Virus record (IMG/VR): IMGVR_UViG_3300040960_002552
Span: 1-52,189 of that record
DNA length: 52,189 bases
Direction: 5' to 3' (one strand)
From: a virus
Lineage: Duplodnaviria; Caudoviricetes
The notes under the pieces were generated by a model that had not been told where the DNA came from, made no database searches, and saw nothing but the letters and a program-made list of their open reading frames with translations. Position numbers and translations under genes: made by a program. Of this stretch, positions 33,119 through 52,170 are shown one piece after another. Each line of letters begins with the position of its first letter. Within the stretch, counting starts at the first letter, position 1.

Positions 33119-33230
33119 AGAAAGGCAAGCTTCCTTGGACGATAAGCACCAGCGGGGAGATCGCGCCCGTGAAATTAGCTACGCCAGAAAAATGGCTGAA
33201 TCCGAACTTTATTTTTAAGTAACCTGTAAA

Positions 33231-33524: not shown

Positions 33525-33563
33525 GATTAAGAAAATTGAACCCTGTAACCTGTAGCCTGTAAA

Positions 33564-33926
33564 ATGAAACTCACTCTCGTAAGGGGAATCCCAGGTAGTG
33601 GAAAATCTACGTATGCCAGGGGACTCGGAATCCCAGACCACTACGAAGCCGACATGTGGTTTGCGGAGCGTGGGGGATTCGACCCTGCGAAACTGAACGA
33701 AGCCCATGCGTGGTGCTTTGAGAAAGCCAAGGAAGCAATGGACTCAGGCAGATCGGTAGTCGTGTCGAACACCTTCATCCGAAGGTGGGAGATGCAGAGA
33801 TACATCGCCTATGCGGAATCCCTCGGCATCCCTGTCGAAGAGATCGTGATGACTGGCGACTATGGCAGTATCCACAATGTGCCGGAATACACTGTTGAAA
33901 GGATGCGCCAAAACTTCGAAAATTGA
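33564..33926 (+). CDS. P-loop kinase (AAA_33 / polynucleotide kinase-like)
   Basis: RGIPGSGKST, EAD, AH.WC, VVVSNTF, HNVP. Confidence 0.85.
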   Translation: MKLTLVRGIPGSGKSTYARGLGIPDHYEADMWFAERGGFDPAKLNEAHAWCFEKAKEAMDSGRSVVVSNTFIRRWEMQRYIAYAESLGIPVEEIVMTGDYGSIHNVPEYTVERMRQNFEN

Positions 33927-33950
33927 ACCCTGTAACCTGTAGCCTGTAAA

Positions 33951-34169
33951 ATGAAACTGAAAAAATCAATAGACCGAAACGGTAATTCGATTCTGAGAAT
34001 CGAAACTCCCCGTGGAGGATTCTCCGTTCAAACCAACGGGAACCTGCCCTTCGCGCATGGATGCCCGACAGAAACCCTGGCGGAAAAAAGCTCAATCATC
34101 TTTGAGGAAATCCGCGCCTTTGTGATGGCGCACGGGACTCGCCGCCAGAAGAGAATCATCAAAAGCTGA
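33951..34169 (+). CDS. Early hypothetical protein
   Basis: CCTGTAA start motif; FSVQTNGNLP. Confidence 0.65.
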   Translation: MKLKKSIDRNGNSILRIETPRGGFSVQTNGNLPFAHGCPTETLAEKSSIIFEEIRAFVMAHGTRRQKRIIKS

Positions 34170-34219
34170 ATCTTGACTCCCTCCTCCCTATCTGAATTAA
34201 AAATAGTTAAAATTAATTG

Positions 34220-34248
34220 TTGACAGTAGGATTTTAATATCGTAATAT
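34220..34248 (+). promoter_or_regulatory. Sigma70-like early promoter
   Basis: TTGACA-17 bp-TAATAT with an AT-rich upstream element. Confidence 0.7.
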
Positions 34249-34282
34249 TACAAGCAGCAGGGGGTGTTCCCCACAAGCAATT

Positions 34283-34603
34283 ATGACTGATAAAGAATAC
34301 AAAGAACTGACACGATCCCGAACCGCATACGAGTGGGGGGTCGAACTGGTGATAGACGATGAGTCTGAGGACATCGACGACACGTTCTACTTCGATGCAT
34401 TTGCCGAAGCAAAGCAAGAGGCTGAGAAACCCCGCGAGGGATACCGGAACGTGGTCGTATTAATCAGAGAACAAGGATCAGAAAGCCTTGGAGTTACGGA
34501 TAGGCAATGGGCCTATCTTGAGGAAGACGGAACTCTACCCGAAGAGTTCGACGGAGGTAGTCGTATCCCGAAAAGATTTCATCAAGAGGTCGCCAAGGCG
34601 TGA
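34283..34603 (+). CDS. Early acidic protein
   Basis: 106-aa ORF below the promoter. Confidence 0.7.
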   Translation: MTDKEYKELTRSRTAYEWGVELVIDDESEDIDDTFYFDAFAEAKQEAEKPREGYRNVVVLIREQGSESLGVTDRQWAYLEEDGTLPEEFDGGSRIPKRFHQEVAKA

Positions 34604-34633
34604 ACCCCAACCCGAACCCTGTAACCTGTAATT

Positions 34634-34990
34634 ATGAAACTAGTAAAGAAAACCGATAGTAAATTATTCTTTGAAACCGAATCGGGTTGCCGATTCACGC
34701 GCCCCATCTACGCATCTACCGGAATGGCAGTAGACCTCGACGGTTGGGTATCCACCCGACTCCTCCTGGAACCAGATGAGTTCGACAAGGAAGAGTTTCC
34801 AGAGGTGCAGTGGAGGCTTGAGATCACGCCGGATATCGACATGGAACACCCATTCTTTTCAAGCACACCCTGCTGGCTGAAACCAGGGTGCAAGCACCAA
34901 CTGATCTACCTCGGCACTGATGGTGAAGAACACCAAGCGAAGGTCACCCAGTGGTGGAACGGAACTCAAAAAGGAGAATCACCCGCATGA
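34634..34990 (+). CDS. Early hypothetical protein
   Basis: CCTGTAA start motif. Confidence 0.65.
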   Translation: MKLVKKTDSKLFFETESGCRFTRPIYASTGMAVDLDGWVSTRLLLEPDEFDKEEFPEVQWRLEITPDIDMEHPFFSSTPCWLKPGCKHQLIYLGTDGEEHQAKVTQWWNGTQKGESPA

Positions 34991-35505
34991 AATACGCGAT
35001 TCACGCTAAAGACAGACCTACTCTGGAAGAGGTGATGGGCGATGACATCCCCACATTCCCGCCTGAGCCAAAAGACCTCGACTTGGCGGAGGCAATCCGT
35101 CCAGGGCTTCGACCTTCACCGGAGGACGGGGATAACATATTCACAGACGGTGAGGTAACCTACTATTGTGTAGAGTTAGAGAGGGAGACTCCCCGCACCA
35201 TCGCTTCCAAGAGGTTCGTCACTGCGAAGGTCTGGTGCAGAACAACATGGAGATATATGTCCGGCGGCTACTGGGAACCTCCCGAAATCGAAGAGCAACC
35301 TCTGGACGAAGAGAGTGGGTGCTGGTCATCTCTCAGCGATGCTGCGAGAGCAACCGCGCACGATGTCCTAGACCGCGAGATCGACGCGCTAGACAACACC
35401 TGCTACGCATGTTTCGGGTGTGGTAAAGAATCACCCCTGGATGAATCCGGGGGCGACTGTAAAACGTGTGGTGGCAAAGGATATGTACCCGCCGCAAAGT
35501 GTTAA
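34987..35505 (+). CDS. Early protein with C-terminal CxxCxGxG zinc-finger repeats
   Basis: CYACFGCG...CKTCGGKG; ATGA overlap. Confidence 0.65.
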   Translation: MKYAIHAKDRPTLEEVMGDDIPTFPPEPKDLDLAEAIRPGLRPSPEDGDNIFTDGEVTYYCVELERETPRTIASKRFVTAKVWCRTTWRYMSGGYWEPPEIEEQPLDEESGCWSSLSDAARATAHDVLDREIDALDNTCYACFGCGKESPLDESGGDCKTCGGKGYVPAAKC

Positions 35506-35512
35506 TTTCAAT

Positions 35513-36034
35513 ATGAAAACCAAAATGAAAAATGAAATAGATAGCTTGCGCTATGAAATTTGGCGCAAGGAAAAGGAAGCGAGAGCGAAAGTGAAAACTC
35601 CTACGTTCGACGAACTGTTCGCACACACGCCGGAAGGTGACTTCCACTGGGAGGGTGACCCGGAAGACGTTGGCAATGTTTGGTGGGGCGACAAAGGTCC
35701 ACGTCAGGATTGCCAATATATCGACATGGGTCGTGAGAACGGTAAAACCTGGTTCGTCGTTTACTTGGAAACTATCGCAGGTTCTAATGACTATCAACTC
35801 GAGGCCGGATGGGATGAGCGTGAAGGAGATGAGATCACCGACGACGTGCTATCGGACCTCCGGTTTCACTTGGAATTCAGAACCATTCGTCACTTCGCTT
35901 CATGGGCGAAATATAACCTAGATTGTGCCATCTCCGGAGAAGACCCGCTGGAAAACTGGTTCGACAGTTCTAAAAACACGCCAGAAAACAATATCGCGGC
36001 GGCGAAGGATAACCTTAAATACCTAACAAAATAG
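35513..36034 (+). CDS. Early hypothetical protein
   Basis: ATG at 35513, after the previous stop. Confidence 0.65.
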   Translation: MKTKMKNEIDSLRYEIWRKEKEARAKVKTPTFDELFAHTPEGDFHWEGDPEDVGNVWWGDKGPRQDCQYIDMGRENGKTWFVVYLETIAGSNDYQLEAGWDEREGDEITDDVLSDLRFHLEFRTIRHFASWAKYNLDCAISGEDPLENWFDSSKNTPENNIAAAKDNLKYLTK

Positions 36035-36448: not shown

Positions 36449-36759
36449 GAACACCAAAACCATTACCCTTACCTCAGATAATCGCTCGCTATCAGAGAGG
36501 CGAGCGATTACAAGACATGACTGAAGATTACAACTGCTGCTATGCGACACTCAGGAGTAGACTCCTAAAAGCGGGGGCCATGCGAAAACCTGGACGGAAG
36601 CGGGGCCAAAAAAGCGGACCCAGAGATCCCGAAAGGTTATCTAAAATCCGCCAACTCAGGCGAAAGAAAATGACCTACCAGCAGATCGCAGATATAGTTG
36701 GCATGTCTAGACAGGGGGTGCAGCAGTATGTGAACAATCATTTAGGCACGAAGAAATGA
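36445..36759 (+). CDS. HTH DNA-binding protein
   Basis: Two HTH-like segments; MTYQQIADIVGMSRQGVQQ. Confidence 0.8.
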   Translation: MRTPKPLPLPQIIARYQRGERLQDMTEDYNCCYATLRSRLLKAGAMRKPGRKRGQKSGPRDPERLSKIRQLRRKKMTYQQIADIVGMSRQGVQQYVNNHLGTKK

Positions 36760-37220
36760 AAACCCTAATCATTATCATTATCATTCTTTCTGGCCTAGCG
36801 ACATACATCGCGAGTGGACAAGAGAAACGGGAGTTCCGTCCCCTGATTCCTGGTAAGTTTACCTCCAGCGAAATCGTTACCACCGCGAAGAAATGGACGG
36901 GTCGTCATTACCGTTACGGACACTCCCGCCAGTGCGCGAACTTCGTGGGTCATGTCATTAAAGACTCTGGGGGGATTCCCCCCTACGGTCACTCAATGGC
37001 TCGGAACTGGTTGAAGTGGGGACACCCCATTCTGCCAGCAGTAATCCGTCCAGGGGATGTTGTAATCACTTGGCGCGGGAGTCGATCAGGAACTTCTGGG
37101 CATATCCTGATCTACATCGGTGATGGGCAATGCATTCACCGCCCGACTCGGAGCAAGGCGGTATGCAAAACTCCACTCTCGCTCTATAAATCTAAAATCT
37201 TAGGAGTGAGGAGGAAGTGA
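36756..37220 (+). CDS. NlpC/P60-like peptidoglycan hydrolase with N-terminal signal or anchor
   Basis: QCANFV, ARNW, PGDVV, GHILIYIGDG..IH; MKTLIIIIIILSG. Confidence 0.8.
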   Translation: MKTLIIIIIILSGLATYIASGQEKREFRPLIPGKFTSSEIVTTAKKWTGRHYRYGHSRQCANFVGHVIKDSGGIPPYGHSMARNWLKWGHPILPAVIRPGDVVITWRGSRSGTSGHILIYIGDGQCIHRPTRSKAVCKTPLSLYKSKILGVRRK

Positions 37221-37550: not shown

Positions 37551-37744
37551 TAACCGGACTTCTTGCGGATTAGCTTCTTCACCCGCTTCTCAGCCTTCGC
37601 TTTGCTGGAGTCTGTATTCGACTTACCAGGCTTTGAGTGTCCGTATCCTTTTTTCTTCATGGCTAAGTGCTGTGCGTAGGTATTAGCCTTATAGCCTTTA
37701 CCGGACTTATCATACATCATGTGGGGCTTGAACTTACTCTTCAT
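37547..37744 (-). CDS. Small basic protein
   Basis: MKSKFKPHMMYD...HLAMKKKGY.H; ATG at 37744 overlaps the end of the giant gene. Confidence 0.7.
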   Translation of the reverse strand: MKSKFKPHMMYDKSGKGYKANTYAQHLAMKKKGYGHSKPGKSNTDSSKAKAEKRVKKLIRKKSGY

Positions 37745-40700
37745 CTTTGTAATTGTAGGTTCCAGGAACATAGGTTCCATCTTCAAATCCTTTAGTGGTA
37801 TATTTTCTCCTTGCTTCCAGCATGAACCTATAGCGTCGATTCGCATCGCTCACATCATCGAACGTTCTCAGCTTCCCTTCGTCTCCATCTTTTCCAGAAG
37901 TAGGTAAAGGTAAAGAGAACGTCCTAGTCACCAACTGACTACGGGTGCTTCCTCTAAGGTAATTACGAATATCTGTCTTTTTCATCAGTCCGGTAGAACT
38001 GAGTGCAACCGCAATTTCCTCTGGAGACATTCCCATTTTGAAGAACTGCTTGGTTACATTGTCGGTCAAGTCATAGACTTGAATGAGTCCCTCGTAGTAA
38101 GCGTTAGCGGCCTCCCTTACCTCTTCGTCTGTTGGTTTTCGCTCTTGCCTACCTACCTTAATATACTGCGTCATCACATCAGATTTATGCGAGGAAGCAT
38201 TCCGCTTAAAGACGTTATACTTTTTAAGAATGGCGGAATGTCTTTCGGCTACGGATCTAGTGAAAGGCTTCGTTGGCCTAACCGCTCTATCGAAGAGTGC
38301 TTTCGCAGCCGCCTCCATCTTCTCGGACTCTGTTCCTTGAGCAGAGTCATAGGCTTGCTTGCCTTCAATGGTTCCTCGGACAAACGCAGGAGCAAGCCTT
38401 TTTAGCGAATAAAGTATTGGCTTTTCAATACGGTCGGAACCTCTATCAGTTTCCTCAACAATCTTTTCACCATAGGCATCCCGGTTGGTATGCACCGCCT
38501 CATGGTAAACTTCGGACAGGATTTGCTGATCCAATATCTCCCCAAACGCAATCGCCCCCAAGAACCCAGAAACCGCACCCATAGCACCTAGTCTATCTTG
38601 TCGAATCTGCTGGACGCCATAACTAAAGGGATCTCCAAAGAAAGACATTTCATCCATGAAGGTGAAGTTGTAGTCCGTTATTTCCCCTGTTTCACGGTTT
38701 AGGAATCTGACCATCTGGGCGCGTTTGTAGAAGCTGGGGTTGCCCTCGTCCAAGGCATCTTGTTCTTCCTGATCAAGCCCACCTATGAGTTTACTCAATA
38801 AGTAACTGGCGGGGCCGAAGGAGACACCATACATCGCAATTACTCCAGCGAGTCTCTTGACCCCCTCTGTTCTCATGACGGGGTTACTTGACTTCAAAAG
38901 CTCAAGGACTTCTGTGTGGTAGTTCACAAATGTCCTTCCTGTCTCAAACTTGAATCTAGCGAAGGGTGCTACGACAACCCGCAAAGGAGACTCCGCTAGA
39001 GTTTTACCGGCTTGAACAAGGTAGTCCTCACCTGGGGTGATCTTATTCATCATCCTAGCTGCCTCCTTTTCGATGTCGTAGTCTGACATCTCCGAAATCG
39101 GAACCCCTCGGAACGACCCCTCTCCCTTCTTGGCCCTAGCCTTTTTCAAAAGATCTACGTTATTGTAGAACAGTGCGATTCGGAAAGCATTGTCGGATGC
39201 GTTCGTAAGTTTTAATGAGTAGTCTAGTATCTTCTTAGAGAGTTTCCTAAATGCCCTTGAAGCAGGGTTTAGAGACTCCAGTTTGTCCATGTCTGCGATG
39301 AAACTAGGGTCGGGCTTTCTCAGCCCGAAGAGGTCTTTATAAGTAGCCGCCCTCACACTCTGATTGACAACGCTGAGTCCTTCTAGTTTGGCGTGTTCCG
39401 TCATGAGCGACTCCAGAGAAACCCGCTCACCTCTGGCTAAACGGTTAATCCAATCAGGAACGTATCGGTATTTCTCGCTCACCCCAGGCAACGAGACTGC
39501 CGCTTCCGCGATAGCACGAACCATGAGTTTGGTCGTGAAAACAGGCTTCAAGAAAGCTCCCGCTCTAACTGCTCTGAACACAGTAGAGAGAGAGTTTCTG
39601 AAGTGGAAGGCTAGTCCTGAGAACGTGGTTACTCCCATCAGGGTCAATCCATTAAGGAACCCAATGGCGGACACTGCTCTAGCAAAACCCTTAGCAGTTT
39701 CGTCTGCCCGACTCATATCAATCGGGGTTTTAGTTTTCTCAAGTGCGGCCTTGATGTCCTTCCTGACATACTTCTCTTTTAATGGATTAGAGGCAGGGAC
39801 GTTGCCCTCCAACATATCGAATTTTTTTCGGTCTAGTGCGTTTAAGTTACGATACTCATCATCCGACAAGATGAATGGATTATACTCCTCGCCAGCAGCC
39901 TCGGCATCTTTTCGCAAACGATTGTCCAGGTCTACGAGATTCTTGAGCTTCATGATGCTTGCCAGCATATGAGTCTGAGTCTGAATAGTCTGAAGCATTA
40001 CCCGGATTCCGCTGATAGCGTCCTCATCAGAATCATATTGACCAAGAAGACCCCTGATACCTGGAAGCAGGTCTTTCTTTTTCTTGAGTGCGTCATGGAT
40101 TACCTTGGCTCCGCTGGAAGCGTTCTCGTAATCCCTCGCATCTCCAAACGAGGCTAGGTATTTAATCATTGCATTTTTAGCCGCCGTGTCTTCGTCACCT
40201 AATTCTTGATCAACCTCTCGTTTGAACTCTTGGGATTGGCGAATTGCTTGAATCTGATCTTGGGTTACTAATTCCCCACTGATTTCAGCCGCTCTTAGTT
40301 TTGCTTTTAAGAGATTTTTCTCGACCTCACTCCGCGCAATAACTAAAAACTCTGGGATTGCGGTTTCAATTCGCCCTTCAAGTTCGGCAACCTTCTGCTC
40401 ATCCCCCTTCACTTCTTCTCCTTGAAGTAATAGAATGAGGTTTGACTTATAAGTGGGGTCATTAAAGAAGCGATAGCGTCGTGACAAGTAGAAACCTTTT
40501 GTTACATCGAAAGCTAGTTTGAGTTCTTTACTCAGTGCGTCCGCTCCATCTTTACCAAAGTAATCAGAGATATCCGTGATTATTTGCCGTAGTTCGACAA
40601 CCATCTGGGCGAGTTTAGTGTGTCCTCCGTCCTCAAGTTCTTTGAGTGCTTTGGCAACCTTTATCTTATGTTCCCTCGCGGCTTCTTGAAGTAGTTTGTC

Positions 40701-43700
40701 TGTCGCTTCCTTTCGCTTATTATTGGCTTCTTCGTGTAGTTTTTCCCGATACAAGTTCCCTGCGATTACTCCAATCTCTCGATCAGTTGCTGTTGGATTA
40801 TCTTCTCTAGCCTCTTGGATTAGAGCATCAGCTTCTTCTGGAGTCATCTGACGATACGAATTAGGATCATCGCTATTAATCAGTTCAATGTCAGCTTCAT
40901 GCTGATCATCTACGTCCATTTTCGCTTTACGATCAATCACAATGTCTTCCGTTCCAATAGCTGTGTTGAAGGCTTCCCTAATGTCTGCTGGCAAATCACC
41001 TTTGTATTTTTTACTTTTGAGGATACCCATCATCTCAGTGTGGAGACGATTGAGAAGACTACCTACGACGGGAACAAACCTCTCGTTGCCGATAATCATG
41101 TTCCTGAACCGCTCATCTTTAAAGTTGCCATCTATCATACCTTTGCGGAACTCAGACCAAAAACTGCCATCATCGCCCACGATGTCTCTCTGGCTAGGCA
41201 GGTCAACCCCAGTGAGCTTTGAAATCATTCTACGGAACAGCCCGAACTCTTTACTGGTGTGAACCAACGGGATTTCAAGCGTTTGAAGTAGGGGTCGTAT
41301 ATCAAATTCCGCCGTTGCCCTTACATCGTCGCCCCCATCGACATCATCCAAGAACCTGGGTGAATAAAGAATCGAATCCTGATCCCTGTCAAACCGTTCA
41401 TCAATCGGGACTCCGGTAAAGGGGTCGGCGGATTTGATTTGCTCAGGCGACCTTATGACAAGGTGTTCCTCGTTGTGAAACGAGAACGCTTCCTCCAAGT
41501 CGGCATAGCCTGTTATGATCGAGTTCGGGTCGCTCTCGCGGTATAGATCCGCGCCCCCTCCAACGTCCACCATTCGACCTTGGATCTCCATTCTCATTGG
41601 TGGCCCCTTTTTCACAAAGTAACCGTTCGCTAGAGCTATAGGCTCCCCTTGGTCAAAAGCCTCCTGCTGCTCCTGCGTAGGAGTCCCAGCAGGTTCGGTA
41701 AACACAACCGTATCGAACCCAGAAGGGAAGCGATCCGTCTCCTCGCCGCGAGCTACTATTTGTTGTGCCGTAACTCGATCAACGGTTCGCCCTTTCTTGA
41801 CGAAAAGGTTTAGAACCTTGTTGCGGCTCGACTGATATTTATAGGACGAGAATGAGTCGGCCTCATTCGATACGTGAAAACCGCGAATGTTGGTGTCTGG
41901 ATCAAACTCAGGTATCTCGCCTCGGTCGAATGCGTCGAAGGTTGCTCCAGTTGCGTGTCTAGTGCGGGTTTCAAACCCCGCAGCCTTTGCCGCTTCCGCT
42001 ACGATCCGCTCTGCCTCGGCAGTCTCTTCCGGCGTGATGGTTCCTGCATCATGTTTCGCTTCAAGTTCTTTATGGCGAGCGATCTTCTGTGGCGAGATCA
42101 CCCCTGGAGGAATCATGAATCGTTGTGCAGGAGTCAGGATGTCACCATCTTTGTCACGGACAACTAGCTCAGGGTTCTCTACCCCATACCGGGCGGCGAC
42201 TCGTTCCAGGGCTTCTTCAGCCATCTCATAGTCGTTCCGGTCCACGGAGTCCATGTAGATGGCATCGTCACGGGCATCCTCATCAGAGATACGGGGTGCG
42301 CGTAAAATAGAATCTTCACGCTCATCGAACCGCTGGTTTAGCGGACTATAGATAGTAGATAACGCTTCATATCCTTCAAGATTATCCGACAGCGTGTTTT
42401 TTCTGGGATTCGACCCCCACTGCTCTACTTCATATACTTCCCCGCCCCCTACATAAACAGAATAATGTCGGTCTATATTATTTTTGTCCCCTCCAAATCC
42501 AAGAATGTCCCCGACTTCTATTTCTTGTAAGGCTTCGTCTACAGAAAATATTTCCACCTCGGTTTTTGAGAACTGTTTTTTGAAACCCTTGTCCCCAACT
42601 ATTAAATTACAAAAACTCTCACAATTCAAATACGGAGACTCTTCATTAATTTGCTCTACCTTTTTTAAGACCTCTTCTGGTGTAATAGCTGGTGCGCCTA
42701 ATACGCCAACTTGTGATTTTTCATCAGTATAAGTTTTTGTAGCTGTTATTATTGAGCCTTTTAAAGAAACATTACCTTTGCCAAATACTGCCTCTACAAA
42801 AGGTAGATACTCGCGTGTGGTTTGGAATCTTTGCCAACCTTTAGATGTTTGCCTTGCTCCCCTCTCTCTGTCTGCTTTAGATCCTTGATACACTGAAAAG
42901 TGAGCTTCCCCTCCAATTTTCACTGCGTTCTTTGCCTGTCTGATTACGTCTATAATGTTTTCATCTTCTTTTATGACATTCAATACATTATGAGACATAG
43001 CCATATCCGCCTGACCATCTTTTACAGCATCGACTACTCTAGCATTGTGTTCTGGTGTCCTATTGAACGGATCATACACTTCTACAAGTGCGCCTTGCTC
43101 GGCGGCATCTTTTACTAGGTTATCAAAGCGGCCTCCTCCAATATCTACGATAAGTTCGCCGCTTTTTATTTTACCTTGTTTTTTTAGTGTGTTATACCCA
43201 GCAGGTCTTTTCTTCTCATTTATAGATGTGTCGGCTGAATCATAAAGCTGTTCTGGATATGCCCATATATTTTCAGAATCCTGCTCTGACGCAAAAGCGG
43301 GTGCGCGTAAAATAGAATCTTCACGCTCATCGAACCGCTGGCTCAGTGGAATCACGTTGCCGTCTGCGTCACGGGTGACGGGGGCGTCCAGTGTTGTGGG
43401 TGTTTGGGTTTCTTCCGCTTCAGTGTAATTAGGTTGGTCTTTATGGTTGACCCTGATTCTATCGGTCTGTTCTTCAGACAAAACGTAAGCCTCAATATCC
43501 GCTCCATCCAGCATGGCTTTCGTTAGCCTGTGGTTTCCGTCCAAAACAAAATAACTTGTTCCTGTGTCCCCTATGATGATAGGTTTTGAAATGTCCGCTT
43601 TACTTACTACTTCTCTATCAACCGCGAGCGGATTTTGAAAAGATTTCAGGTCTTTGTGGGGAATAGTTTCTTTCTCCACCGCCTCTTGACTTATGATCTT

Positions 43701-46700
43701 AAAAGCACTTTGCTGACCTGCGTATTCAGCTTGGATCACATAGTCATTTCCTTTGTATGGAAACAGTTCTCCACCTTTTCTGTTTTCCAGCAGGGTGTTC
43801 TTTACTTTTAACAGGTAATCATCCACCATACGCTGCGCCGTCTCCATGTCGCCGGATTCGACTGCGGCCAGGTAATCAGCGTCTTGTTCTGGTGTAATAG
43901 CTGGTGCGCCTACTGCGTCAGGCTCCTGTGGGGGGAACATTTGACTGAGTGCTTCGATGTCGGCAGCAGCCCCTTGGGGAGAATCGTCAAATGTGTAACC
44001 ATATGGAAGCGGGGTCTTGAAGTCCATCCGCAACATATTGATCTCATCTGTGATCCTAGCAACTGCCGCCCTCTCTGGGCCAGACAAGAAGCGTCCGTTC
44101 TTAGTCTTCTTGGTGATCCGGCGATACATACCCTTTAAGTATGCGATAACGAGATCTCTGATAGGCTTTCTCTTATCCCCTTTGAGAAGTAGATAAGAGT
44201 CCTCTGTCGTGAACCCTGCTTCCTTATCCTGGTATTGCTGGCGCAAGAACTCTTCAACCAAGTATTCTTTCTGTCGCTTAACAATCTGTGGGTTGTTACT
44301 TTTCAGATCGGATCTCGCCTTTGCTGCGCCTTTTTTGTCGAATTTGAAATAGGTGCTAATCACATACTCGTAGTCAGAGTCAGCCATCCCGTTAACAACA
44401 TCATCGAACAAGGACTGAGGGATAGAATTAAAGGACGCTATGTGCGCGAACTCTTCGACAACTACCCTCTGTAAAGAAGCGGAAACATATTTTTGATGAC
44501 TACTATTAGAGAAGTCTATGTCTCTATTGCCCCTAAACTGCTCAAACAAAGCAACGGGGTCGATTGTTACTTCTCCAGTTCTCCTGTTAGCAGCAGCCGC
44601 AAATCGACTCTTACCTATGACCAGAGTGACCGTAGAAGGGAGTTGTTCCAGTGCCTTCTCTAAGACACTCATGAATATCTTAAACGCCTCTACGTCCTCT
44701 CCTTTGAACTGCTTGGCAGTCTCTTCAATAGATGCTTTACTGAAGACTCGTTTAGTGCGACCTGCACCCAGCCTCTGTTCAGTATTCAAGACGGGGGACT
44801 CGGATGCAGGGGGCAGGATTGGGCTTCCCACTTTGGAAGACACAACGCTTGATATGGCATTGGCCGTAACAGGAGGGGCAGTAACTTGAGCTTTGCCGGA
44901 TAGCTTCCGGAGGTAAGTAATAAACTCCCTGTCGGATTCTGGGTCCAAATTGTTTTGGGGGTTCGAGTCAAGCCAATCCAAGACCGCTGATACTTTCTCA
45001 GAATCAGTAAGGCTATCGAAGTCCTTGATCTTCAGCTTTTTAGTCGTCTTATTACTAGGAAGAACAACAGAGTCGCGACCCACCAGCTTACTAACCTGAG
45101 TGTCGCGAGATGCTTTTTTAAGTATCTTGCGAAGAGCGGAAGTAGTTTTGTTCTTCAGCTTAGACTCGAAAACAAAAGTTACCGGAGATCCATCTATGTT
45201 TGCTTGGAAGGAACTACCTTTACTAATTTTTGCTTTCTGGCTTTGGCGGATGCCCTTTCCTCCCCTGGCTTTCCTCAGAACTCTATCAGCTTCCTCTGCA
45301 TCTTTAACGAATACAACCCTACCACCCGCTTGATTTATTCTGTTAATCTCATCGCTCACCGCTTCGGCTTGCTGTTTAACCTTGGGGTCTGTTGGGGTTT
45401 TAGTGCTTTCGGGGAACGTCGTCTCATCTACCTGGGCGACAACTCGATCAACTTCTTGGTCTTCGGAGAGGGGTTCAACCCTCGGGTCAGGTGTGACATC
45501 GGGTGAACTCAGTTTACTTGGGTCCGCAGCGGCTTGTTGATCGGAGTCAAGAGCCTTATCAATCTCCTTGTTAAGCTCCGCTTCGGGGTCTGCTTCCACA
45601 GGCTCAAAAATAATTTCGATTGGCGCGTCCGCCTCCCCTTCTGCGGTGGGTGTCGCTTCTGGTGGAGGCTCCGCTTCCGTTGTGGGTTCCGTTCCAGGGA
45701 CAGGCTCTGCCTCCGTTGTAGGCTCTGCCTCCGTTGTAGGCTCTGCCTCCGTTGTGGGTTCTGCCTCTGGTGTAGGCTCTGCTTCTGGTGTAGGTTCCGT
45801 TCCAGGGACAGGCTCTGGGGTAGGTGTGGAGGTAGGTGTAGGGGTAGGTGGTGCGAGTCCCATGCGAGCCGCATCGTCCATAGTGAGTTTACCTTTGGCG
45901 ATCAACTCTTCTACTTCGGCGCGTGTTTTGCCGTCAAAGTCTCTGCCCCTAGCGGGAGAGGTCAGGACATTTGCTACCACCTCTGCCGTAAGTGGCGACC
46001 CGCTTTCCGCCAACCTATCTGAAATATCTTCGTAGAGAAGTTGAGACGCTTGCATTGCAGCCTCTCTGCTATCCTTTGAAGGTGCTACCAGCGACCCCAG
46101 ACCCGAACCCGCACTACTCAAACCAGAAACGCCACCACCAAGAACAGCCCCTATGATGAAATCACCCTTGCCTGTCTCGTATGCTTCCTTTAAAAGCTCC
46201 GAATCTACTTGCCCACTTGCTAGGTATTTACCGAACTCAAGGTATTTGTCGAATATCCTAAGAAGCGGAACATCTTCATTTAGTTCGTTATAATCCAAAT
46301 AAGACGTTAGAAAGTCCTCAAAGATTACAGAAGCCCCCGAAGGAAGTCCTTCTTCAATCCCCTCACTAGCGGCCCCAAGTAACAGTTTAGGGATTCCCCC
46401 TCTAGCTACCCCCAACTCTTTCTCCAGTTCCTTTATTGATGTCCCGACAAGTTCTGAAAATTTCTTATTATCAATTTTGCCAAAGTCTTTGCTTAAATGT
46501 TTTTTAAGTGCTTTGGGGGATATACCTTTAAGAATAGAGGACTCCACCACATCAAACCCCCCTTTAGCAAAACCCGCAGTTAAAGCCGCTTCAAAACCAG
46601 TTTTAAAAGCTGCTGCATCAGCAGCAAACTCTCTCTGTTGATCGAGGGTCATGTCTTGACCTTCGGGAGAGTTTTGAATTTGTAACAAGCTGGCTCCGTA

Positions 46701-48956
46701 GTTGCGGGAATATCCTGCCAAGTATGTCCTCCCCACCATACCAGGCAAAGCTCTGCCCATAGTGCCGGGACTCAGTTTCTTAGCAATCGCTTCTTTGTAT
46801 GCCTTTGCCTTCGATGCCCCTTTAGCTGCGCTGATTTTTTTCAAAGCAGCGTCGTCAGCTAGTTTAGAGAGAATTTTCTTCTTAGCTATCTCTTTAGATC
46901 CTTTAAGGGCGGGTAACCCCACTTTTGAACCTACTTTTGAACCTACTTTTGAACCTACTTTCCCTATCGTCCCTGCGCCCCTAGTTAAAACGAAATCCAT
47001 AGCAAGCTGACCCACAAGACCCGATGCACCTACAGCGAGGTCGTATCCCATTCCAGGCTTATACCCAAAAGCCTCCATAGCCTCTCTTTGGGCCATAGCT
47101 TTCGCCGCCTCATTTACAGCCCCTTCCTCAGACGCTGTATACAAACCCATCTCTCTAATCTTTTCCGCCAGCTTTGGGGAGACAAACCCTGCGACTTGTT
47201 CCGCGAGCAAAGGCACACTTTGGGCGTAATATGCAGGGGACATGGCAAACTCGTTCAGCATACCACTCTGATAAATGGCCCCCTTATCTACTTTCGCTTC
47301 TTTCAAGAACTCATCGAAAAGATCTCCAAAAGATTTTGTCTCTGTCTCTGGGAAGTAAGTCAGAGCTTCTTCCCTAGACATCTCGCCCGACTTTATCTTC
47401 TCGGATCTTTTCTCCCAAAGTTCTTCTTGGTATTTGTCAAAAGAGTCTAAGTCCAAACTCTCTCCGCGAGACTCCGCGAACTCTTCAAAGTTACGTCCTT
47501 CCTCGTCACGGAGGAAATTAATAGCATTGCGGACCTCATCGGAATACTGAAATGCTGGGTCATTTAATATAATTTTGCGCCTTTCCCGAAGAGTATCTTT
47601 GTCCTCTTCGGATAGCCCAGCATCTTCCACAGACTTCTCAAAAATGTCGGGCCTAAAGATTGTGGCTTTGTGGATAGTTAATTGCCCCGTCAGCGGGTCT
47701 TTCCTTACGTTCCCCGATAAGTCTCCTTCATCTTTGAATGACTCAGGGAGGTCTTGAATAGTCCTTTCGTATATGTAATTGTCAGAAATTAGAGTAAATA
47801 ACTCATCCTCTGGGTCTATGTTAAATCCTAGCCCAGCAGCGTCTGAGTTATTAACAAACCCCGCGAGTGCCGAACGGAACTCCTCTTTAGCTTCTGGATC
47901 ATCTGGCTCCGACGCTGCTCTCCGCAAGCTGGTTAACAAAGGGTTTTTGTTTTTCCCCGTTAAAAGAGACTTCTTGACGTAAGAATCTAGTTCTTGAAGG
48001 CGAACCTGTTTAGCCAAGGAGAGTCCTTGTTCCCCTTCTGCTTTTTCCGTAGCGAGCTTAAAAGCAATCAGGGCTTGATCGGGTCTGATGTGTCCGTTCT
48101 CCAAAGAAAACTTTATAGCTTCTGAGGGACTATTAAAATTTCCCAATGCGGCGGGGGACGCTTCTACGGTTTCCCCAACTTCTTCACCCCCCTCAAAATA
48201 TGGAACCGATGCAAACGGTATTAAGTCAGACCTAACGGCAACTTGATTAAGGTCTTTCTCTCGGACCCCAGACAACAAATCATCAATCCCCTTCTGTCGA
48301 GCTTGTTCTTGGAACTCATTAATGGGGGTGTATTTATTTAAAGCGGCAGCAGTAGCTCTAGTATTTTGTGGGTAATCCTGATTAAAGCTCGCGGCCCCCC
48401 GGTTGGCGAGGGTCTTGATAGTTTTGTCGTCTAAAGCAGAAATTATCTCAAGTCTGTTGCCCGTCGCGTCTGGACTTGGTTCAATCGCAGCGGCTTGAAT
48501 AGCTGCTTGGACTTTTTCTTCAGAAAACTCTGCCCCCTCTGGGACTTCAACCCGAAAGTTACTGGCGAATTGGTTATATGCGTCCTGATACTCCTTCTCA
48601 GTGGCTTCACCTTGATACTCCCCGCGCCCCAGCTTTTGTAGTTTGTCGAAGTTTATGTATCTTAATCTGTCAGAATGCTCTTCAACAACTTTTCTCTCAG
48701 TGTCGTTAAGTCCCTCTGTTATGCTAGAGTCTAGCGAAGGGCGGTCTACCTTCCACACTGCAAAATCAGGGATAGGTTCAACAGCAGTAGGAGCAGGGAA
48801 CTTCTCTGACTTTTTCTCCTCCTCTTCCTCTTCGAGATCAGTATTCGTCGAGGGTTCTAGTTCGGAGTCTTCTGGTAAAGAGCCAGTAAGACCTTCTTTT
48901 TCTAGCTCATCTTCGGACGGCTCAGGCGTGGGGGAGGGGAATTTGGTGTCTGCCAT
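37734..48956 (-). CDS. Giant (3740 aa) polyvalent internal virion/ejection protein
   Basis: Embedded zincin-like EEFAH, ParB-like DGNHRL, MTase DIGGG..NVLNVI, papain-like NCESF..H, and ART-like H..GF..PEQIKS modules. Confidence 0.85.
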   Translation of the reverse strand: MADTKFPSPTPEPSEDELEKEGLTGSLPEDSELEPSTNTDLEEEEEEKKSEKFPAPTAVEPIPDFAVWKVDRPSLDSSITEGLNDTERKVVEEHSDRLRYINFDKLQKLGRGEYQGEATEKEYQDAYNQFASNFRVEVPEGAEFSEEKVQAAIQAAAIEPSPDATGNRLEIISALDDKTIKTLANRGAASFNQDYPQNTRATAAALNKYTPINEFQEQARQKGIDDLLSGVREKDLNQVAVRSDLIPFASVPYFEGGEEVGETVEASPAALGNFNSPSEAIKFSLENGHIRPDQALIAFKLATEKAEGEQGLSLAKQVRLQELDSYVKKSLLTGKNKNPLLTSLRRAASEPDDPEAKEEFRSALAGFVNNSDAAGLGFNIDPEDELFTLISDNYIYERTIQDLPESFKDEGDLSGNVRKDPLTGQLTIHKATIFRPDIFEKSVEDAGLSEEDKDTLRERRKIILNDPAFQYSDEVRNAINFLRDEEGRNFEEFAESRGESLDLDSFDKYQEELWEKRSEKIKSGEMSREEALTYFPETETKSFGDLFDEFLKEAKVDKGAIYQSGMLNEFAMSPAYYAQSVPLLAEQVAGFVSPKLAEKIREMGLYTASEEGAVNEAAKAMAQREAMEAFGYKPGMGYDLAVGASGLVGQLAMDFVLTRGAGTIGKVGSKVGSKVGSKVGLPALKGSKEIAKKKILSKLADDAALKKISAAKGASKAKAYKEAIAKKLSPGTMGRALPGMVGRTYLAGYSRNYGASLLQIQNSPEGQDMTLDQQREFAADAAAFKTGFEAALTAGFAKGGFDVVESSILKGISPKALKKHLSKDFGKIDNKKFSELVGTSIKELEKELGVARGGIPKLLLGAASEGIEEGLPSGASVIFEDFLTSYLDYNELNEDVPLLRIFDKYLEFGKYLASGQVDSELLKEAYETGKGDFIIGAVLGGGVSGLSSAGSGLGSLVAPSKDSREAAMQASQLLYEDISDRLAESGSPLTAEVVANVLTSPARGRDFDGKTRAEVEELIAKGKLTMDDAARMGLAPPTPTPTSTPTPEPVPGTEPTPEAEPTPEAEPTTEAEPTTEAEPTTEAEPVPGTEPTTEAEPPPEATPTAEGEADAPIEIIFEPVEADPEAELNKEIDKALDSDQQAAADPSKLSSPDVTPDPRVEPLSEDQEVDRVVAQVDETTFPESTKTPTDPKVKQQAEAVSDEINRINQAGGRVVFVKDAEEADRVLRKARGGKGIRQSQKAKISKGSSFQANIDGSPVTFVFESKLKNKTTSALRKILKKASRDTQVSKLVGRDSVVLPSNKTTKKLKIKDFDSLTDSEKVSAVLDWLDSNPQNNLDPESDREFITYLRKLSGKAQVTAPPVTANAISSVVSSKVGSPILPPASESPVLNTEQRLGAGRTKRVFSKASIEETAKQFKGEDVEAFKIFMSVLEKALEQLPSTVTLVIGKSRFAAAANRRTGEVTIDPVALFEQFRGNRDIDFSNSSHQKYVSASLQRVVVEEFAHIASFNSIPQSLFDDVVNGMADSDYEYVISTYFKFDKKGAAKARSDLKSNNPQIVKRQKEYLVEEFLRQQYQDKEAGFTTEDSYLLLKGDKRKPIRDLVIAYLKGMYRRITKKTKNGRFLSGPERAAVARITDEINMLRMDFKTPLPYGYTFDDSPQGAAADIEALSQMFPPQEPDAVGAPAITPEQDADYLAAVESGDMETAQRMVDDYLLKVKNTLLENRKGGELFPYKGNDYVIQAEYAGQQSAFKIISQEAVEKETIPHKDLKSFQNPLAVDREVVSKADISKPIIIGDTGTSYFVLDGNHRLTKAMLDGADIEAYVLSEEQTDRIRVNHKDQPNYTEAEETQTPTTLDAPVTRDADGNVIPLSQRFDEREDSILRAPAFASEQDSENIWAYPEQLYDSADTSINEKKRPAGYNTLKKQGKIKSGELIVDIGGGRFDNLVKDAAEQGALVEVYDPFNRTPEHNARVVDAVKDGQADMAMSHNVLNVIKEDENIIDVIRQAKNAVKIGGEAHFSVYQGSKADRERGARQTSKGWQRFQTTREYLPFVEAVFGKGNVSLKGSIITATKTYTDEKSQVGVLGAPAITPEEVLKKVEQINEESPYLNCESFCNLIVGDKGFKKQFSKTEVEIFSVDEALQEIEVGDILGFGGDKNNIDRHYSVYVGGGEVYEVEQWGSNPRKNTLSDNLEGYEALSTIYSPLNQRFDEREDSILRAPRISDEDARDDAIYMDSVDRNDYEMAEEALERVAARYGVENPELVVRDKDGDILTPAQRFMIPPGVISPQKIARHKELEAKHDAGTITPEETAEAERIVAEAAKAAGFETRTRHATGATFDAFDRGEIPEFDPDTNIRGFHVSNEADSFSSYKYQSSRNKVLNLFVKKGRTVDRVTAQQIVARGEETDRFPSGFDTVVFTEPAGTPTQEQQEAFDQGEPIALANGYFVKKGPPMRMEIQGRMVDVGGGADLYRESDPNSIITGYADLEEAFSFHNEEHLVIRSPEQIKSADPFTGVPIDERFDRDQDSILYSPRFLDDVDGGDDVRATAEFDIRPLLQTLEIPLVHTSKEFGLFRRMISKLTGVDLPSQRDIVGDDGSFWSEFRKGMIDGNFKDERFRNMIIGNERFVPVVGSLLNRLHTEMMGILKSKKYKGDLPADIREAFNTAIGTEDIVIDRKAKMDVDDQHEADIELINSDDPNSYRQMTPEEADALIQEAREDNPTATDREIGVIAGNLYREKLHEEANNKRKEATDKLLQEAAREHKIKVAKALKELEDGGHTKLAQMVVELRQIITDISDYFGKDGADALSKELKLAFDVTKGFYLSRRYRFFNDPTYKSNLILLLQGEEVKGDEQKVAELEGRIETAIPEFLVIARSEVEKNLLKAKLRAAEISGELVTQDQIQAIRQSQEFKREVDQELGDEDTAAKNAMIKYLASFGDARDYENASSGAKVIHDALKKKKDLLPGIRGLLGQYDSDEDAISGIRVMLQTIQTQTHMLASIMKLKNLVDLDNRLRKDAEAAGEEYNPFILSDDEYRNLNALDRKKFDMLEGNVPASNPLKEKYVRKDIKAALEKTKTPIDMSRADETAKGFARAVSAIGFLNGLTLMGVTTFSGLAFHFRNSLSTVFRAVRAGAFLKPVFTTKLMVRAIAEAAVSLPGVSEKYRYVPDWINRLARGERVSLESLMTEHAKLEGLSVVNQSVRAATYKDLFGLRKPDPSFIADMDKLESLNPASRAFRKLSKKILDYSLKLTNASDNAFRIALFYNNVDLLKKARAKKGEGSFRGVPISEMSDYDIEKEAARMMNKITPGEDYLVQAGKTLAESPLRVVVAPFARFKFETGRTFVNYHTEVLELLKSSNPVMRTEGVKRLAGVIAMYGVSFGPASYLLSKLIGGLDQEEQDALDEGNPSFYKRAQMVRFLNRETGEITDYNFTFMDEMSFFGDPFSYGVQQIRQDRLGAMGAVSGFLGAIAFGEILDQQILSEVYHEAVHTNRDAYGEKIVEETDRGSDRIEKPILYSLKRLAPAFVRGTIEGKQAYDSAQGTESEKMEAAAKALFDRAVRPTKPFTRSVAERHSAILKKYNVFKRNASSHKSDVMTQYIKVGRQERKPTDEEVREAANAYYEGLIQVYDLTDNVTKQFFKMGMSPEEIAVALSSTGLMKKTDIRNYLRGSTRSQLVTRTFSLPLPTSGKDGDEGKLRTFDDVSDANRRYRFMLEARRKYTTKGFEDGTYVPGTYNYKDEE
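42294..42336. repeat. 43-bp exact direct repeat (other copy 43299-43341)
   Basis: Encodes QRFDEREDSILRAP. Confidence 0.9.
42675..42700. repeat. 26-bp exact direct repeat (other copy 43887-43912)
   Basis: Encodes GAPAITPE. Confidence 0.9.
45640..45850 (-). repeat. 18-bp coding repeats (EPTTEA / EPTPEA linker)
   Basis: Pro/Thr/Glu-rich linker in the giant protein. Confidence 0.85.
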
Positions 48957-50157: not shown

Positions 50158-51555
50158 TTAGTCGTTGACACCTTCAGTTCCAAAACCAGTAATATAGTTG
50201 CCGCCATTTCTTATGATGGTGGGCTTTGTTGATTTTGCAGGGAATCTTCTTGCTTCGACTGCGAAGTCAATATCTGCCCCAGGTATGTCACGCTCTGGGA
50301 TAGGCGATCCTGTCCGCTTTGCTTCAGCGACCGCTTCTTGATATTCCGCTTCAAGCCTATCAAATAGTCTAGGATCATCGTAGCGCATCTTATCGAGCAT
50401 GTCTTCGCCAAACTTCCTTTTCGCAGCTTCGGGAGACATGCGCCCTTCGGCTACCATTTTACTGTATCTGTCTATGATTCGTGAGTCAGGAGCAATTTTC
50501 TTGGCCCCCTTAGATAGCGCAGTATAGGTTCCGGGGGCTACCCCTACCTCTTTGTCTGCTTGCATCTGGTAGAGTTCGGCTAGTCCCCCATCTCCTTTCA
50601 CTCCAGTAAACCCTTGCGCCCTTAAATTTGCTGCTTTTTCAGCGTATTCTTCACGACTGATTTTGGGCCTTCCGTCATCATACTCCCCTATGTCGGGTTC
50701 TTGGTATGGTTTACTCCCCGCAGCAGCGGCCTTCTTCCCAGCGGCTCTTACTCTTCGCAGTGCCTCCGCTTTAGCAAATGCGGGTTCATTTATAAATCGG
50801 TCTACCCGCGCACGGGGAACCCCAGCCGCGTATGCTTGGCTAGACGCCTTTGCAATGGCTTCTGCCCTGTCACTTCCTGGACTCATCTTCATCGCTTCCA
50901 TCAAAGCCGTAGCAGCCTCCTGCCTAGCCTCCACATCTTCATTAAATCTAGGGACTGATGCTTTGTATTCTTCTCTCTCTATAAAACGATTTAGAACTGA
51001 CTCAGGCACTCCCGCATCCTTAGCTTGTTTTTTAGCGGCTTCACCGACTTCACCTAAATAATCAGGATCTATCGTGATTGCGGCTCGTAGTTTTTTGGCG
51101 GCCTCCTGTCGCGCTCGCAGTTCTTCCTCATTCTTCGGGGGGCTATATGACACGGGTTCTCGGCTTGTGGGCTTACTTGGGGCTGTAGGGGTAGCCGCAG
51201 GTGCTGTAGGGGTAGCCGCAGGTGCTGTAGGGGTAGCCGCAGGTGCTGTAGGCGTAGCCGCAGGTGCTGTAGGTTTAGCCGCAGGTGCTGTAGGATTAGA
51301 CACAAGTTTAGACACAAGTTTAGACACAGGGGTAACCTCTGGGATTGAAATACCCCTACTCCTTAGCATCTTGTCCACATTGAAATTAGGCGTTTTTGCT
51401 GATACAGGATCAGCCGCAGTAGGAGCATTAGGAGCCTCAGATTTTTTTCCGGCCAAGGCTCTCCCAACAGATTGTAATACTCCCTTTCGATCCTCGGAAG
51501 ACCCCTTATCCTTTTTACTGCCGAATTGCCCTCGTTTTCTCTTGCGTTGTCTCAT
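50158..51555 (-). CDS. Putative internal virion protein with APAATPT repeats
   Basis: Basic N-terminus, 21-bp repeats at about 51180-51295, Ala-rich helices. Confidence 0.65.
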   Translation of the reverse strand: MRQRKRKRGQFGSKKDKGSSEDRKGVLQSVGRALAGKKSEAPNAPTAADPVSAKTPNFNVDKMLRSRGISIPEVTPVSKLVSKLVSNPTAPAAKPTAPAATPTAPAATPTAPAATPTAPAATPTAPSKPTSREPVSYSPPKNEEELRARQEAAKKLRAAITIDPDYLGEVGEAAKKQAKDAGVPESVLNRFIEREEYKASVPRFNEDVEARQEAATALMEAMKMSPGSDRAEAIAKASSQAYAAGVPRARVDRFINEPAFAKAEALRRVRAAGKKAAAAGSKPYQEPDIGEYDDGRPKISREEYAEKAANLRAQGFTGVKGDGGLAELYQMQADKEVGVAPGTYTALSKGAKKIAPDSRIIDRYSKMVAEGRMSPEAAKRKFGEDMLDKMRYDDPRLFDRLEAEYQEAVAEAKRTGSPIPERDIPGADIDFAVEARRFPAKSTKPTIIRNGGNYITGFGTEGVND

Positions 51556-51576: not shown

Positions 51577-52170
51577 TTAACGACTCTTTTGTTTTTTCTT
51601 CCTAACGCTATTTAAAACGTCCCTCTTATTGCCCAACATACTGGGTCGTTCAGACCCTACTTTACGACCATACCCTGCACCTGGGTTAGAATTGGGGTTT
51701 GCTGTATTCCCTCTGTTCCCACCAATCGGTTTACCATACCCAGCACCTGGGCTAGAATTGGGGTTCGCAGTTGGAGGCTTAACTCCTGCGGGGCTAGGAG
51801 GGGTAGAGGTTGGTGGTTTGACCAAGGCAGGACTAGGTGGAGTCTCGGTGAACGCAGGGCTAGGAGTAGGCTTACTCCCCAACATACTGGGCCGTTCTGT
51901 TCCAACAGGGCGACCATACCCCGCACCCGCTGAAGCGTTAGGGTTCGCTGTATTCCCTCTGTTCCCACCAATCGGTTTACCATACCCTGCACCAGGCTTA
52001 GAGTTAGGGTTCGCTGTATTTCCTCTGTTTCCACCAAGGGGCTTACCATACCCTGCACCAGGCTTAGAGTTAGGGTTCGCAGTTGGAGACTTAACACCTG
52101 TGGGGCGAGGGGGAGTGTCCGTGTTCATCCCGCCTTGGGGGTTACGCCTACCTTTTCTTCCTTTTCTCAT
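51577..52170 (-). CDS. Basic disordered repeat protein
   Basis: Five TANPN..(P/A)GAGYG units; basic termini. Confidence 0.65.
   Translation of the reverse strand: MRKGRKGRRNPQGGMNTDTPPRPTGVKSPTANPNSKPGAGYGKPLGGNRGNTANPNSKPGAGYGKPIGGNRGNTANPNASAGAGYGRPVGTERPSMLGSKPTPSPAFTETPPSPALVKPPTSTPPSPAGVKPPTANPNSSPGAGYGKPIGGNRGNTANPNSNPGAGYGRKVGSERPSMLGNKRDVLNSVRKKKQKSR

Follow-up and report, generated by a model that had tools for sequence, protein, structure and literature searches.

A giant phage polyvalent protein with a probable array of effector units whose cores change at conserved adaptors

Polyvalent proteins, as surveyed by Iyer et al. 2017 (PMC5512222), are very large phage proteins that join unrelated enzymes, ADP-ribosyltransferase (ART) domains being the commonest and standing alongside ParB-like, methyltransferase, GNAT and peptidase domains. 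In the portions of that article used here, ARTs are reported in one to twelve copies per protein and in many contexts, one Helicobacter family is described as mosaic and, for one kinase-containing system, cassette-like recombination is raised as a possibility. We describe here such a protein encoded by a marine virus of the Caudoviricetes (IMG/VR record IMGVR_UViG_3300040960_002552; CheckV completeness 86%), all 52,189 bases of which were analysed and are called the window below, every coordinate being a position in this record. The gene, at 37734-48956 on the minus strand, is a single open reading frame (ORF) of 3740 residues; it can be classed with the polyvalent proteins as it holds a ParB/Srx fold, a methyltransferase of the Methyltransf_23 type and an ART inside one ORF, and as phage-encoded since the record carries replication and lysis genes. 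The window also codes for a DNA polymerase, a helicase, an exonuclease, a RuvC-like resolvase, an endonuclease VII and an endolysin. We consider it probable that residues ~1683-2533 of the giant protein are an array of effector units, each made of a hairpin, a core and a tail, whose conserved ends also serve the ordinary recombination of phages as short arms of homology.

The locus can be compared with three described systems. A conserved two-part adaptor around each unit, as seen here, is not described for polyvalent proteins in the consulted portions of PMC5512222. In polymorphic toxins such as CdiA and Rhs (Zhang et al. 2012, PMC3482391), a short conserved segment likewise borders a variable effector and cassette recombination diversifies it; their variation, however, concerns the C-terminal tip only and is accompanied by downstream spare cassettes and immunity genes, whereas the array of the window has several internal slots, each bounded on both sides, and no spare cassettes in the record. 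As the orphan cassettes found beside the main gene of polymorphic toxins are lacking, the array works alike without being a member of that group, and the absence of a spare cassette in the record means that the donors must be other phages. The third system is DoMo, in the Type I restriction specificity subunits of Helicobacter pylori (PMC3077401), where a segment moves between positions in one gene, as one cassette does here between slot 1 of the allele L001 and slot 2 of the allele L004. There, the moving segments are target-recognition domains from a single family and the gene is cellular, in contrast to the unrelated enzymes, the phage protein and the exchange between genomes of the present case.

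Polyvalent proteins are thus far known as domain catalogues, and neither the speed at which their architecture changes nor the borders of their units are set out in the literature searched. This literature, with the consulted text of PMC5512222 included and its supplementary site outside the scope, yielded no description of the adaptor pair or of cassette exchange at the nucleotide level, and no paper in it contains the adaptor peptide strings. What is new here is the grammar of N- and C-adaptors, the stand-alone units that end at the tail, the junctions at nucleotide level and the turnover of all cores at ~97% flank identity. The locus gives a rule, the hairpin-core-tail unit with defined ends, and a natural experiment, in the form of phages ~97% identical in their flanks and different in every core. 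The rule opens questions about the joints as recombination hot spots or as cleavage sites and about the binding partner of the conserved tail. The linkers look like natural plug-in joints. The rule also points to positions where a phage protein might tolerate foreign modules, which would be useful for effector-delivery studies in laboratory phage-host pairs.

The canonical unit opens with a two-helix hairpin (the N-adaptor, consensus QDADYLAAVE.GDMETAQRMVDEAAK.AGY), continues with an enzyme core and closes with a tail (the C-adaptor, consensus PVT.D..GNVIPLSQRFD....DIRY) that ends in I-(R/L)-(Y/F). A C-adaptor follows the N-adaptor, 57-393 residues later, in 70 of the 71 other viral ORFs that have an N-adaptor (74 pairs), and the two alternate strictly in order (NC, NCNC, NCNCNC). 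The cores of these 74 framed units are ART-PolyVal in 55 cases and GNAT in one, and 18 have no Pfam family. One of the 18 is an empty pair in another phage's large protein (L042:3001-3174), where the N-adaptor is joined directly to the C-adaptor in 58 residues with no core. Among 125 polyvalent relatives, 111 match the C-adaptor profile, with 190 copies in all; this set is biased, as are those behind several other counts given here, since some relatives were retrieved via the motif itself. Mean column identity reaches 80% and 62% in the two adaptors versus 26% over whole units, and the N-adaptor is also present in genome bins of Bacillota, Bacteroidota, Verrucomicrobiota, Planctomycetota, Proteobacteria and others (92 stretches). 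An AlphaFold2 (AF2) model of the ParB unit of the window places helices of the N-adaptor at residues 7-18 and 22-46, and predicts GNVIPLSQRF, though covered by no alignment row, with a local confidence (pLDDT) of 88. The predicted complex of N-adaptor and C-adaptor (39-row alignment each, controls not run) scored 0.12 versus a mark of 0.32, which counts neither way, and we do not claim that the adaptors pack together as a clasp, an idea for which the only ground would be the pLDDT.

All the motifs that the original prediction had quoted, as well as its two exact repeats, were recovered in place inside 41350-44480, and all the features that follow lie on the minus strand. Upstream of the array stands a conserved zincin-related domain (43911-44759, residues 1400-1682) with EEFAH (residue 1501) replacing HExxH. 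The left edge of the variable array is the first copy of linker A (GAPAITPE, residue 1683; 43887-43912, a 26-nucleotide exact repeat), and is succeeded by N-adaptor 1, a two-helix hairpin (43809-43901, residues 1686-1716, AITPEQDADYLAAVESGDMETAQRMVDD..., profile E 6.3e-21), by the ParB/Srx-fold core (43398-43808, residues 1717-1853; PIII...DGNHR, with VLDGNHRL at residue 1804) and by C-adaptor 1 (...PVTRDADGNVIPLSQRFDEREDSILRAP; 43299-43397, residues 1854-1886, profile E 4.6e-18), which includes the first copy of the 43-nucleotide exact repeat (RFDEREDSILRAP at residue 1874). After C-adaptor 1, the alleles L004 and L009 run on as AFASEQDADYLAAVESGD... and the window as SENIWAYPEQ, and comparison with these two alleles identifies AFASEQD (43278-43298) as an N-adaptor stump severed by insertion of the methyltransferase. 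This class I S-adenosylmethionine methyltransferase core (42699-43277, residues 1894-2086, Methyltransf_23 E 1.2e-4; DIGGG at 1938, YDPFN at 1961, NVLNVI at 1990) leads to the second copy of linker A (GAPAITPE, residue 2087; 42675-42700, the 26-nucleotide exact repeat, with 24 nucleotides 100% identical to the first linker of L004). Next come a weakly supported NlpC/P60- or LRAT-like core (42345-42674, residues 2095-2204; NCESF at 2111, RHYSVY at 2163 in RHYSVYVGGG) and the second half only of C-adaptor 2 (PLNQRFDEREDSILRAP; 42294-42344, profile E 2.3e-4), which is the second copy of the 43-nucleotide exact repeat (RFDEREDSILRAP at residue 2209); the NlpC slot keeps only 8 and 17 adaptor residues. 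A conserved spacer (41973-42293, residues 2222-2328) is probably an empty unit in degenerate form, with half an N-adaptor, AERIVAEAAKAAGF, after it, and gives weak profile matches to both (C' E 0.005, half-N E 0.02). The array ends with ART core A (41448-41972, residues 2329-2503, ART-PolyVal E 3.3e-5; GFHVS at 2359) and C-adaptor 3 (PEQIKSADPFTGVPIDERFDRDQDSILYSP; 41358-41447, profile E 7.8e-6; PEQIKSADP at 2504 and RFDRDQDSILYSP at 2521), the right edge of the array and the site of a crossover-type junction. The slots of the window therefore contain a ParB/Srx-fold domain, a methyltransferase and an NlpC-like domain that jointly replace the interior of a second unit, an apparently empty degenerate unit and an ART.

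Six alleles of the giant gene, the window, L001, L002, L003, L004 and L009, were compared, using scans of viral and metagenome contigs. The five relatives share their flanks with the window (74-99.9% nucleotide identity) but carry other modules; common to all are the N-terminal 1680 residues, the C-terminal 1240 residues, the 107-residue spacer and the linkers, and the orthologues L001-L004 have the start MADTK and both flanks in common. Where the window has ParB, methyltransferase, NlpC-like and ART-A cores, L001 has a module without Pfam assignment, a GNAT and an ART, L002 a DUF7178 and an ART, L003 an ART between two cores without Pfam assignment, L004 an ART, the L001 module and another ART, and L009 an ART, a Phage_L5_gp82-like core and another ART; Pfam itself recognises GNAT and ART in L001, DUF7178 and ART in L002, ART in L003, ART twice in L004, and ART and Phage_L5_gp82 in L009. 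Altogether 17 distinct cores fill 18 slots, and blastn between the six variable regions, in all 15 pairings, found similarity confined to the adaptors and the spacer, with the single exception of the cassette present in L001 slot 1 and L004 slot 2 (84% over 572 nucleotides). L004 is 97.5% identical to the window over gene nucleotides 1-5138 and 96.1% identical from codon 2506 to the end, with no common core, and the cores thus turn over quickly compared with point divergence.

Homology breaks occur in every orthologue at residues 1683-1713, 1858-1895, 2205-2221, 2327-2329 and 2503-2508; homology with L002 and L003 stops at the first copy of linker A and that with L001, L004 and L009 at residue 1713, and the linker of C-adaptor 1 follows other cores in L001, L003, L004 and L009. 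Module content accordingly varies among orthologues and every homology break falls in a linker, a comparison by which the original prediction had proposed to be judged and which it withstood. L001 adds a long tract of near identity: its downstream 3.7 kb are 99.92% identical to the window and its upstream part is 87-93% identical or unrelated. The tract starts abruptly at gene nucleotide 7522 (codon 2508), at the Lys codon of IKSADP, with mismatches at 7533 and 7539 and just one more over the 3684 nucleotides after them, which places the junction of the tract inside the third C-adaptor; synonymous divergence (dS) between the window and L001 is 0.001 in the C-terminal part and 0.38 in the N-terminal part. 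The spacer, 92-97% identical at the nucleotide level in all five orthologues, has a dS of 0.21-0.23 (L001, L002 and L003) versus 0.38-0.83 in the flanks of the same orthologues and, to judge by these values, has its own history. The aligned genes show that whole cores have been replaced, added or removed between close phages, with junctions inside adaptors and the reading frame kept.

The variable region of the window contains two direct repeats, 42294-42345 versus 43299-43350 (52 nucleotides, 94%) and 42675-42708 versus 43887-43920 (34 nucleotides, 91%). Within them, the two copies of RFDEREDSILRAP match exactly across 14 codons and one base (43 nucleotides) and the two copies of GAPAITPE across 8 codons and two bases (26 nucleotides), both with sharp edges and random similarity directly outside, and both with spacings that keep the frame (1005 nucleotides or 335 codons, and 1212 nucleotides or 404 codons, respectively). 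A chance origin is excluded, since the expectation for the shorter repeat is 11223^2/2 x 4^-26, or ~1e-8. The third copy of the linker, RFDRDQDSILYSP, has a similar peptide with other codons (TTT/TTC, GAC/GAT, TCG/TCT, CTT/TTA); selection on the peptide alone therefore gives no nucleotide identity, and the exact repeats must be recent. Their sharp edges, as a sequence pattern, are as expected of recombination junctions. Two other origins of the array were considered and ruled out: tandem duplication followed by divergence, because the cores are unrelated, and a diversity-generating retroelement, because the differences are whole modules and not sites.

Regarding the cores, the ParB/Srx-like call is supported by the fold, with its conserved DGxHR-type motif. 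Among the relatives of the ParB core, 20 (19 of 76-481 residues and P0122 of 819 residues) have no Pfam ParB family, the ParBc_2 match in P0142 being outside the part aligned to the core; the scan of viral contigs with the ParB core gave no ParB relative and only N-adaptor matches, namely 129 viral stretches that match just the first 23 residues after GAPAITPE. Searches of PDB sequences with the ParB, NlpC and methyltransferase cores returned nothing useful. In P0122, the ParB-like core (85% identity) runs straight into another Methyltransf_23 domain, unlike that of the window, with no adaptor in between, and the pairing of ParB with a methyltransferase therefore recurs independently of the linkers. 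The methyltransferase call holds as well, Methyltransf_23 being matched in all 13 aligned relatives (best E 1.1e-8) and DIGGG being invariant in the alignment; a search with the profile of this core found one tRNA methyltransferase (E 0.025). This core is 88% identical in amino acids to that of P0003, a protein otherwise 21-30% identical in which the core lies between two copies of P0003's own linker, SPQSGILYSAPV, and 28 further viral loci have this core, its edges unchanged, in smaller proteins without adaptors. In L090-L115 a motif, DPVSGNE(I/V)P(L/M/P)GS, recurs ~30-45 residues past the methyltransferase core.

The call of an ART-like domain is supported: orthologue ARTs pass the PF18760 cut-off (L002 56.5, L003 70.6, L004 62.5 and L009 47.2 bits), and ART core A is 58-66% identical to P0004-P0006, which carry PF18760. 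The window core itself is under this cut-off and we file it as ART-like only; compared with the H-Y-D site of the family, it has the invariant His, GFHV at the position of GFYF, and no located Asp. Two further calls of the original prediction are weak. For the papain/NlpC-like domain, the evidence is an LRAT match (E 0.015, 16 bits versus a cut-off of 24.3), a match of the His strand to the NLPC_P60 gene at 36756-37220 (E 0.011) and 38% identity to P0007 and P0008; NCESF and RHYSVY are candidates picked by eye, and no relatives of this core were found in the PDB sequence search, the viral contigs or the near-length search. The zincin-like domain is indeed homologous to a zincin-type domain, but has EExxH in place of HExxH: among 22 aligned homologues, the window included, 19 have xEExxH and three (P0009, P0022 and P0029) have HExxH, and on this sequence basis we do not file the window domain as an active zincin. 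It has an Atlas lead to LPD23 (18% of one cluster) and no Pfam match.

The same units are also found alone. A profile of the framed ART unit retrieved 187 proteins of 78-427 residues; among the 120 short proteins listed, 114 have the C-adaptor and 40 of these 114 stop exactly at the aromatic residue of ...DIRY. Truncation at contig ends cannot yield exact stops at this residue. The tail is therefore where these proteins naturally end, and the giant protein can be read as such units strung end to end. In several of the stand-alone units, whose contigs measure 17-106 kb, a short leader precedes the hairpin, the ART and the tail. Those of P0182 and P0268 have a common leader, TRNFDQFCS(K/R)FL(F/Y)ES, present twice in P0182, which may be a targeting leader. 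At 206 distinct internal tail sites, Ile is found at position -2 in 186, Tyr or Phe at 0 in 153 and Ser or Ala at +1 in 147, a pattern which extends one residue past the natural end and would fit a processing site. One might go further and see in the adaptor pair a universal portable format of effector units, used by tailed phages and other mobile elements in many bacterial phyla, the giant proteins then being polyproteins cut after the aromatic residue and the free tail a signal for packaging, ejection or docking to a host hub; we hold this broad view to be doubtful, but if it were true the joints would be natural sites for plugging in any protein for phage delivery. As a lead only, the tail tip D-I-x-aromatic-COOH can be likened to the C-terminal tip of bacterial SSB.

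The stretch was also traced in nature: 61-99% of its sampled words are present in each of 22 runs from seawater and estuaries. Contigs were inspected from four runs. Some match only an adaptor and are flanked to left and right by dissimilar sequence (43327/43383 in X17 and 43326/43383 in X21), and therefore derive from other alleles, or from other genes with the same adaptors, in the same samples; loose contig ends were seen at 42688, 43831/43869 and 41388. One contig of X19 spans 42623-43328, crossing the 26-nucleotide repeat and joining the methyltransferase to the NlpC core, and another spans 43299-43977 and joins the ParB core to the N-terminal part. A contig of X17 (1866 nucleotides, depth 6.38) joins 42293 to 43299 over 43 shared letters and skips 1005 nucleotides, as an in-frame deletion allele would. 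Such contigs are built from 31-letter words, shorter than the 43-nucleotide repeat. We do not count this contig as evidence, because the assembler could make the same join and the stretches adjacent to both junctions are barely covered; nor do we read any meaning into the parts of the window that lack contig cover. A second joint, in X21 (41441 to 44099), is probably from another allele.

These observations can be assembled into a mechanism. The adaptors, kept as peptide, would also provide stretches of 25-110 nucleotides that are nearly identical in co-infecting phages and in different slots of one gene, at which the general recombination of the phage (exonuclease, RuvC-like resolvase, endonuclease VII) could exchange cassettes. 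Recombination in phages and in E. coli can work with homologies of ~25-50 nucleotides, the length range of the present repeats. The two exact intragenic repeats would then be footprints of the latest exchange events, and the fast turnover would reflect diversifying selection on effectors putatively delivered into the host; the aromatic-then-small-residue junction of the tail may in addition be a candidate processing site that frees the units. The view of the original prediction that the linkers are crossover points is supported by the breaks, the sharp repeat edges and the crossover start in the third linker, and needs amending in that the linkers also form the two conserved ends of a self-contained effector unit that many phages have.

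Several points weigh against this proposal. The compared alleles are only six, and the population data are Logan contigs and not reads, hence no read-level evidence of ongoing exchange; the X17 join corresponds exactly to the predicted loss of the methyltransferase and NlpC cores and may equally be an assembly artefact. The junction points vary within the adaptors (after QRMVD, EQD, GAPAITPE and AAKAAGF; before QRFD and KSADP), and some joins may be illegitimate and filtered by selection, not homologous crossovers; selection for intact domains alone would also leave breakpoints between domains. Across distant phages, the N-adaptor DNA occurs in 62 nucleotide versions in 69 instances, with a codon identity at identical residues of 0.48-0.53 versus 0.36 expected. 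The N-adaptor is therefore kept as peptide and not as DNA, primary selection is on the protein and its use in recombination may be a by-product. Lastly, two window cores score below their families' cut-offs, the methyltransferase with 22.3 bits versus 27 (E 1.2e-4) and the ART with 25.1 bits versus the gathering cut-off of 31.2 for ART-PolyVal PF18760 (E 3.3e-5), and the latter has a His at the family's Tyr position, where L029 has GHHF.

Part of the same evidence can be read otherwise. The linkers might be above all proteolytic processing sites of a polyprotein, cut after the tail aromatic either by a head protease or by the polyprotein's own zincin-related or papain-like domain, the swaps mapping to the linkers only because joins elsewhere destroy function. 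Such a reading is compatible with recombination at the adaptors and deserves serious thought, even if we lean away from it: a cut at ...DIRY, where 40 of 114 stand-alone units end exactly, would recreate the natural C-terminus, the 206 internal sites are conserved one residue past that end and the consulted portions of Iyer et al. 2017 (PMC5512222) predict that zincin-like peptidases bring about the autoprocessing of polyvalent proteins. However, the zincin-related domain is without the first metal-binding His, the NlpC call is weak and, at two of the three window sites, position 0 is occupied by Arg instead of an aromatic residue (SILR|AP), and processing leaves unexplained both the synonymous-site identity of the intragenic repeats and the low dS of the spacer. 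Somewhat less credit can be given to the idea that the adaptors are plain terminal elements of the ART-PolyVal domain, non-ART cores having replaced ART by chance and the remnants at the ParB, methyltransferase and NlpC slots being functionless scars. The predominance of ART-PolyVal (55 of 74 adaptor-framed units) and the few residues kept around the NlpC slot (8 and 17) would agree with it, but we find it unlikely given that the adaptors are far better conserved than the ART core (80% and 62% versus 26% for whole units), that the C-adaptor beyond QIKSA has no counterpart in PARP matches and is kept after non-ART cores in L010, L011, L021, L036, L045, L046, L053, L077 and L085, that L042 has an empty pair of N- and C-adaptors and that AF2 gives GNVIPLSQRF a pLDDT of 88 in a ParB unit.

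The module order of the window could also be an assembly chimera generated by the 43- and 26-nucleotide repeats, as short-word assemblies cannot resolve the former, Logan contigs break or jump there and the exact 3740-residue sequence is absent from a collection of 15 billion proteins. We judge this very improbable: against it stand the 61-99% of sampled words in 22 runs, the X19 contig 42623-43328 and the other contig 43299-43977, which link the modules of the window, the fact that among the junction words seen only the window order gives a linear molecule with the methyltransferase-NlpC block, and the presence of the same design with other cores on five independent contigs. Hardly any credence is left for a programmed site-specific cassette system of integron or shufflon type with the linkers as recombinase sites, to which the repeat-bounded cassettes bear a superficial likeness. 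No integrase or invertase was found among the 31 ORFs scanned with PHROGs or the 19 scanned with Pfam, the repeats are direct and inside codons, the linker DNA differs among genomes and the adaptor profiles find no adaptor copy or spare cassette outside the giant gene across the 52-kb record; with no recombinase present and linker DNA that is not conserved, we rejected such a system. An array of units exchanged by ordinary recombination at their conserved ends thus remains the reading that we prefer.

As for the rest of the gene and its surroundings, a Pfam scan of the whole 3740-residue protein gave a weak ART match only, a DNA search with window positions 41000-45000 against a phage collection gave no match, and the neighbouring genes provided, with PHROGs and Pfam, no structural annotation in favour of a virion or ejection role of the giant protein. 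The N-terminal half of the giant gene contains a tandem array rich in Pro, Thr, Glu and Ala (TPEAEPT..., period 36 nucleotides, 45633-45817), for which blastn finds length differences between alleles, and three 12-nucleotide KVGS repeats (46918-46961). Upstream of the giant ORF, the gene 50158-51555 on the minus strand has six 21-nucleotide tandem repeats (51158-51325) and a weak match, under the cut-off, to the polyvalent-associated domain LPD22 (E 0.0033), and the ORF 51577-52170, at the record end, includes three copies of a 147-nucleotide repeat (51625-52083, 70-81% identity). Just downstream of the giant gene, on the opposite strand, lies a genuine NlpC/P60 gene (36756-37220, plus strand; 31.8 bits, cut-off 23). 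The G+C content is 0.51-0.53 in 24000-36000, a region where most ORFs have no PHROG or Pfam match, versus 0.43-0.48 across most of the remaining record. The ORF 31657-32526 on the plus strand strongly matches PHROG 7245 'anti-restriction protein' (E 2.5e-71) and is a separate candidate counter-defence gene.

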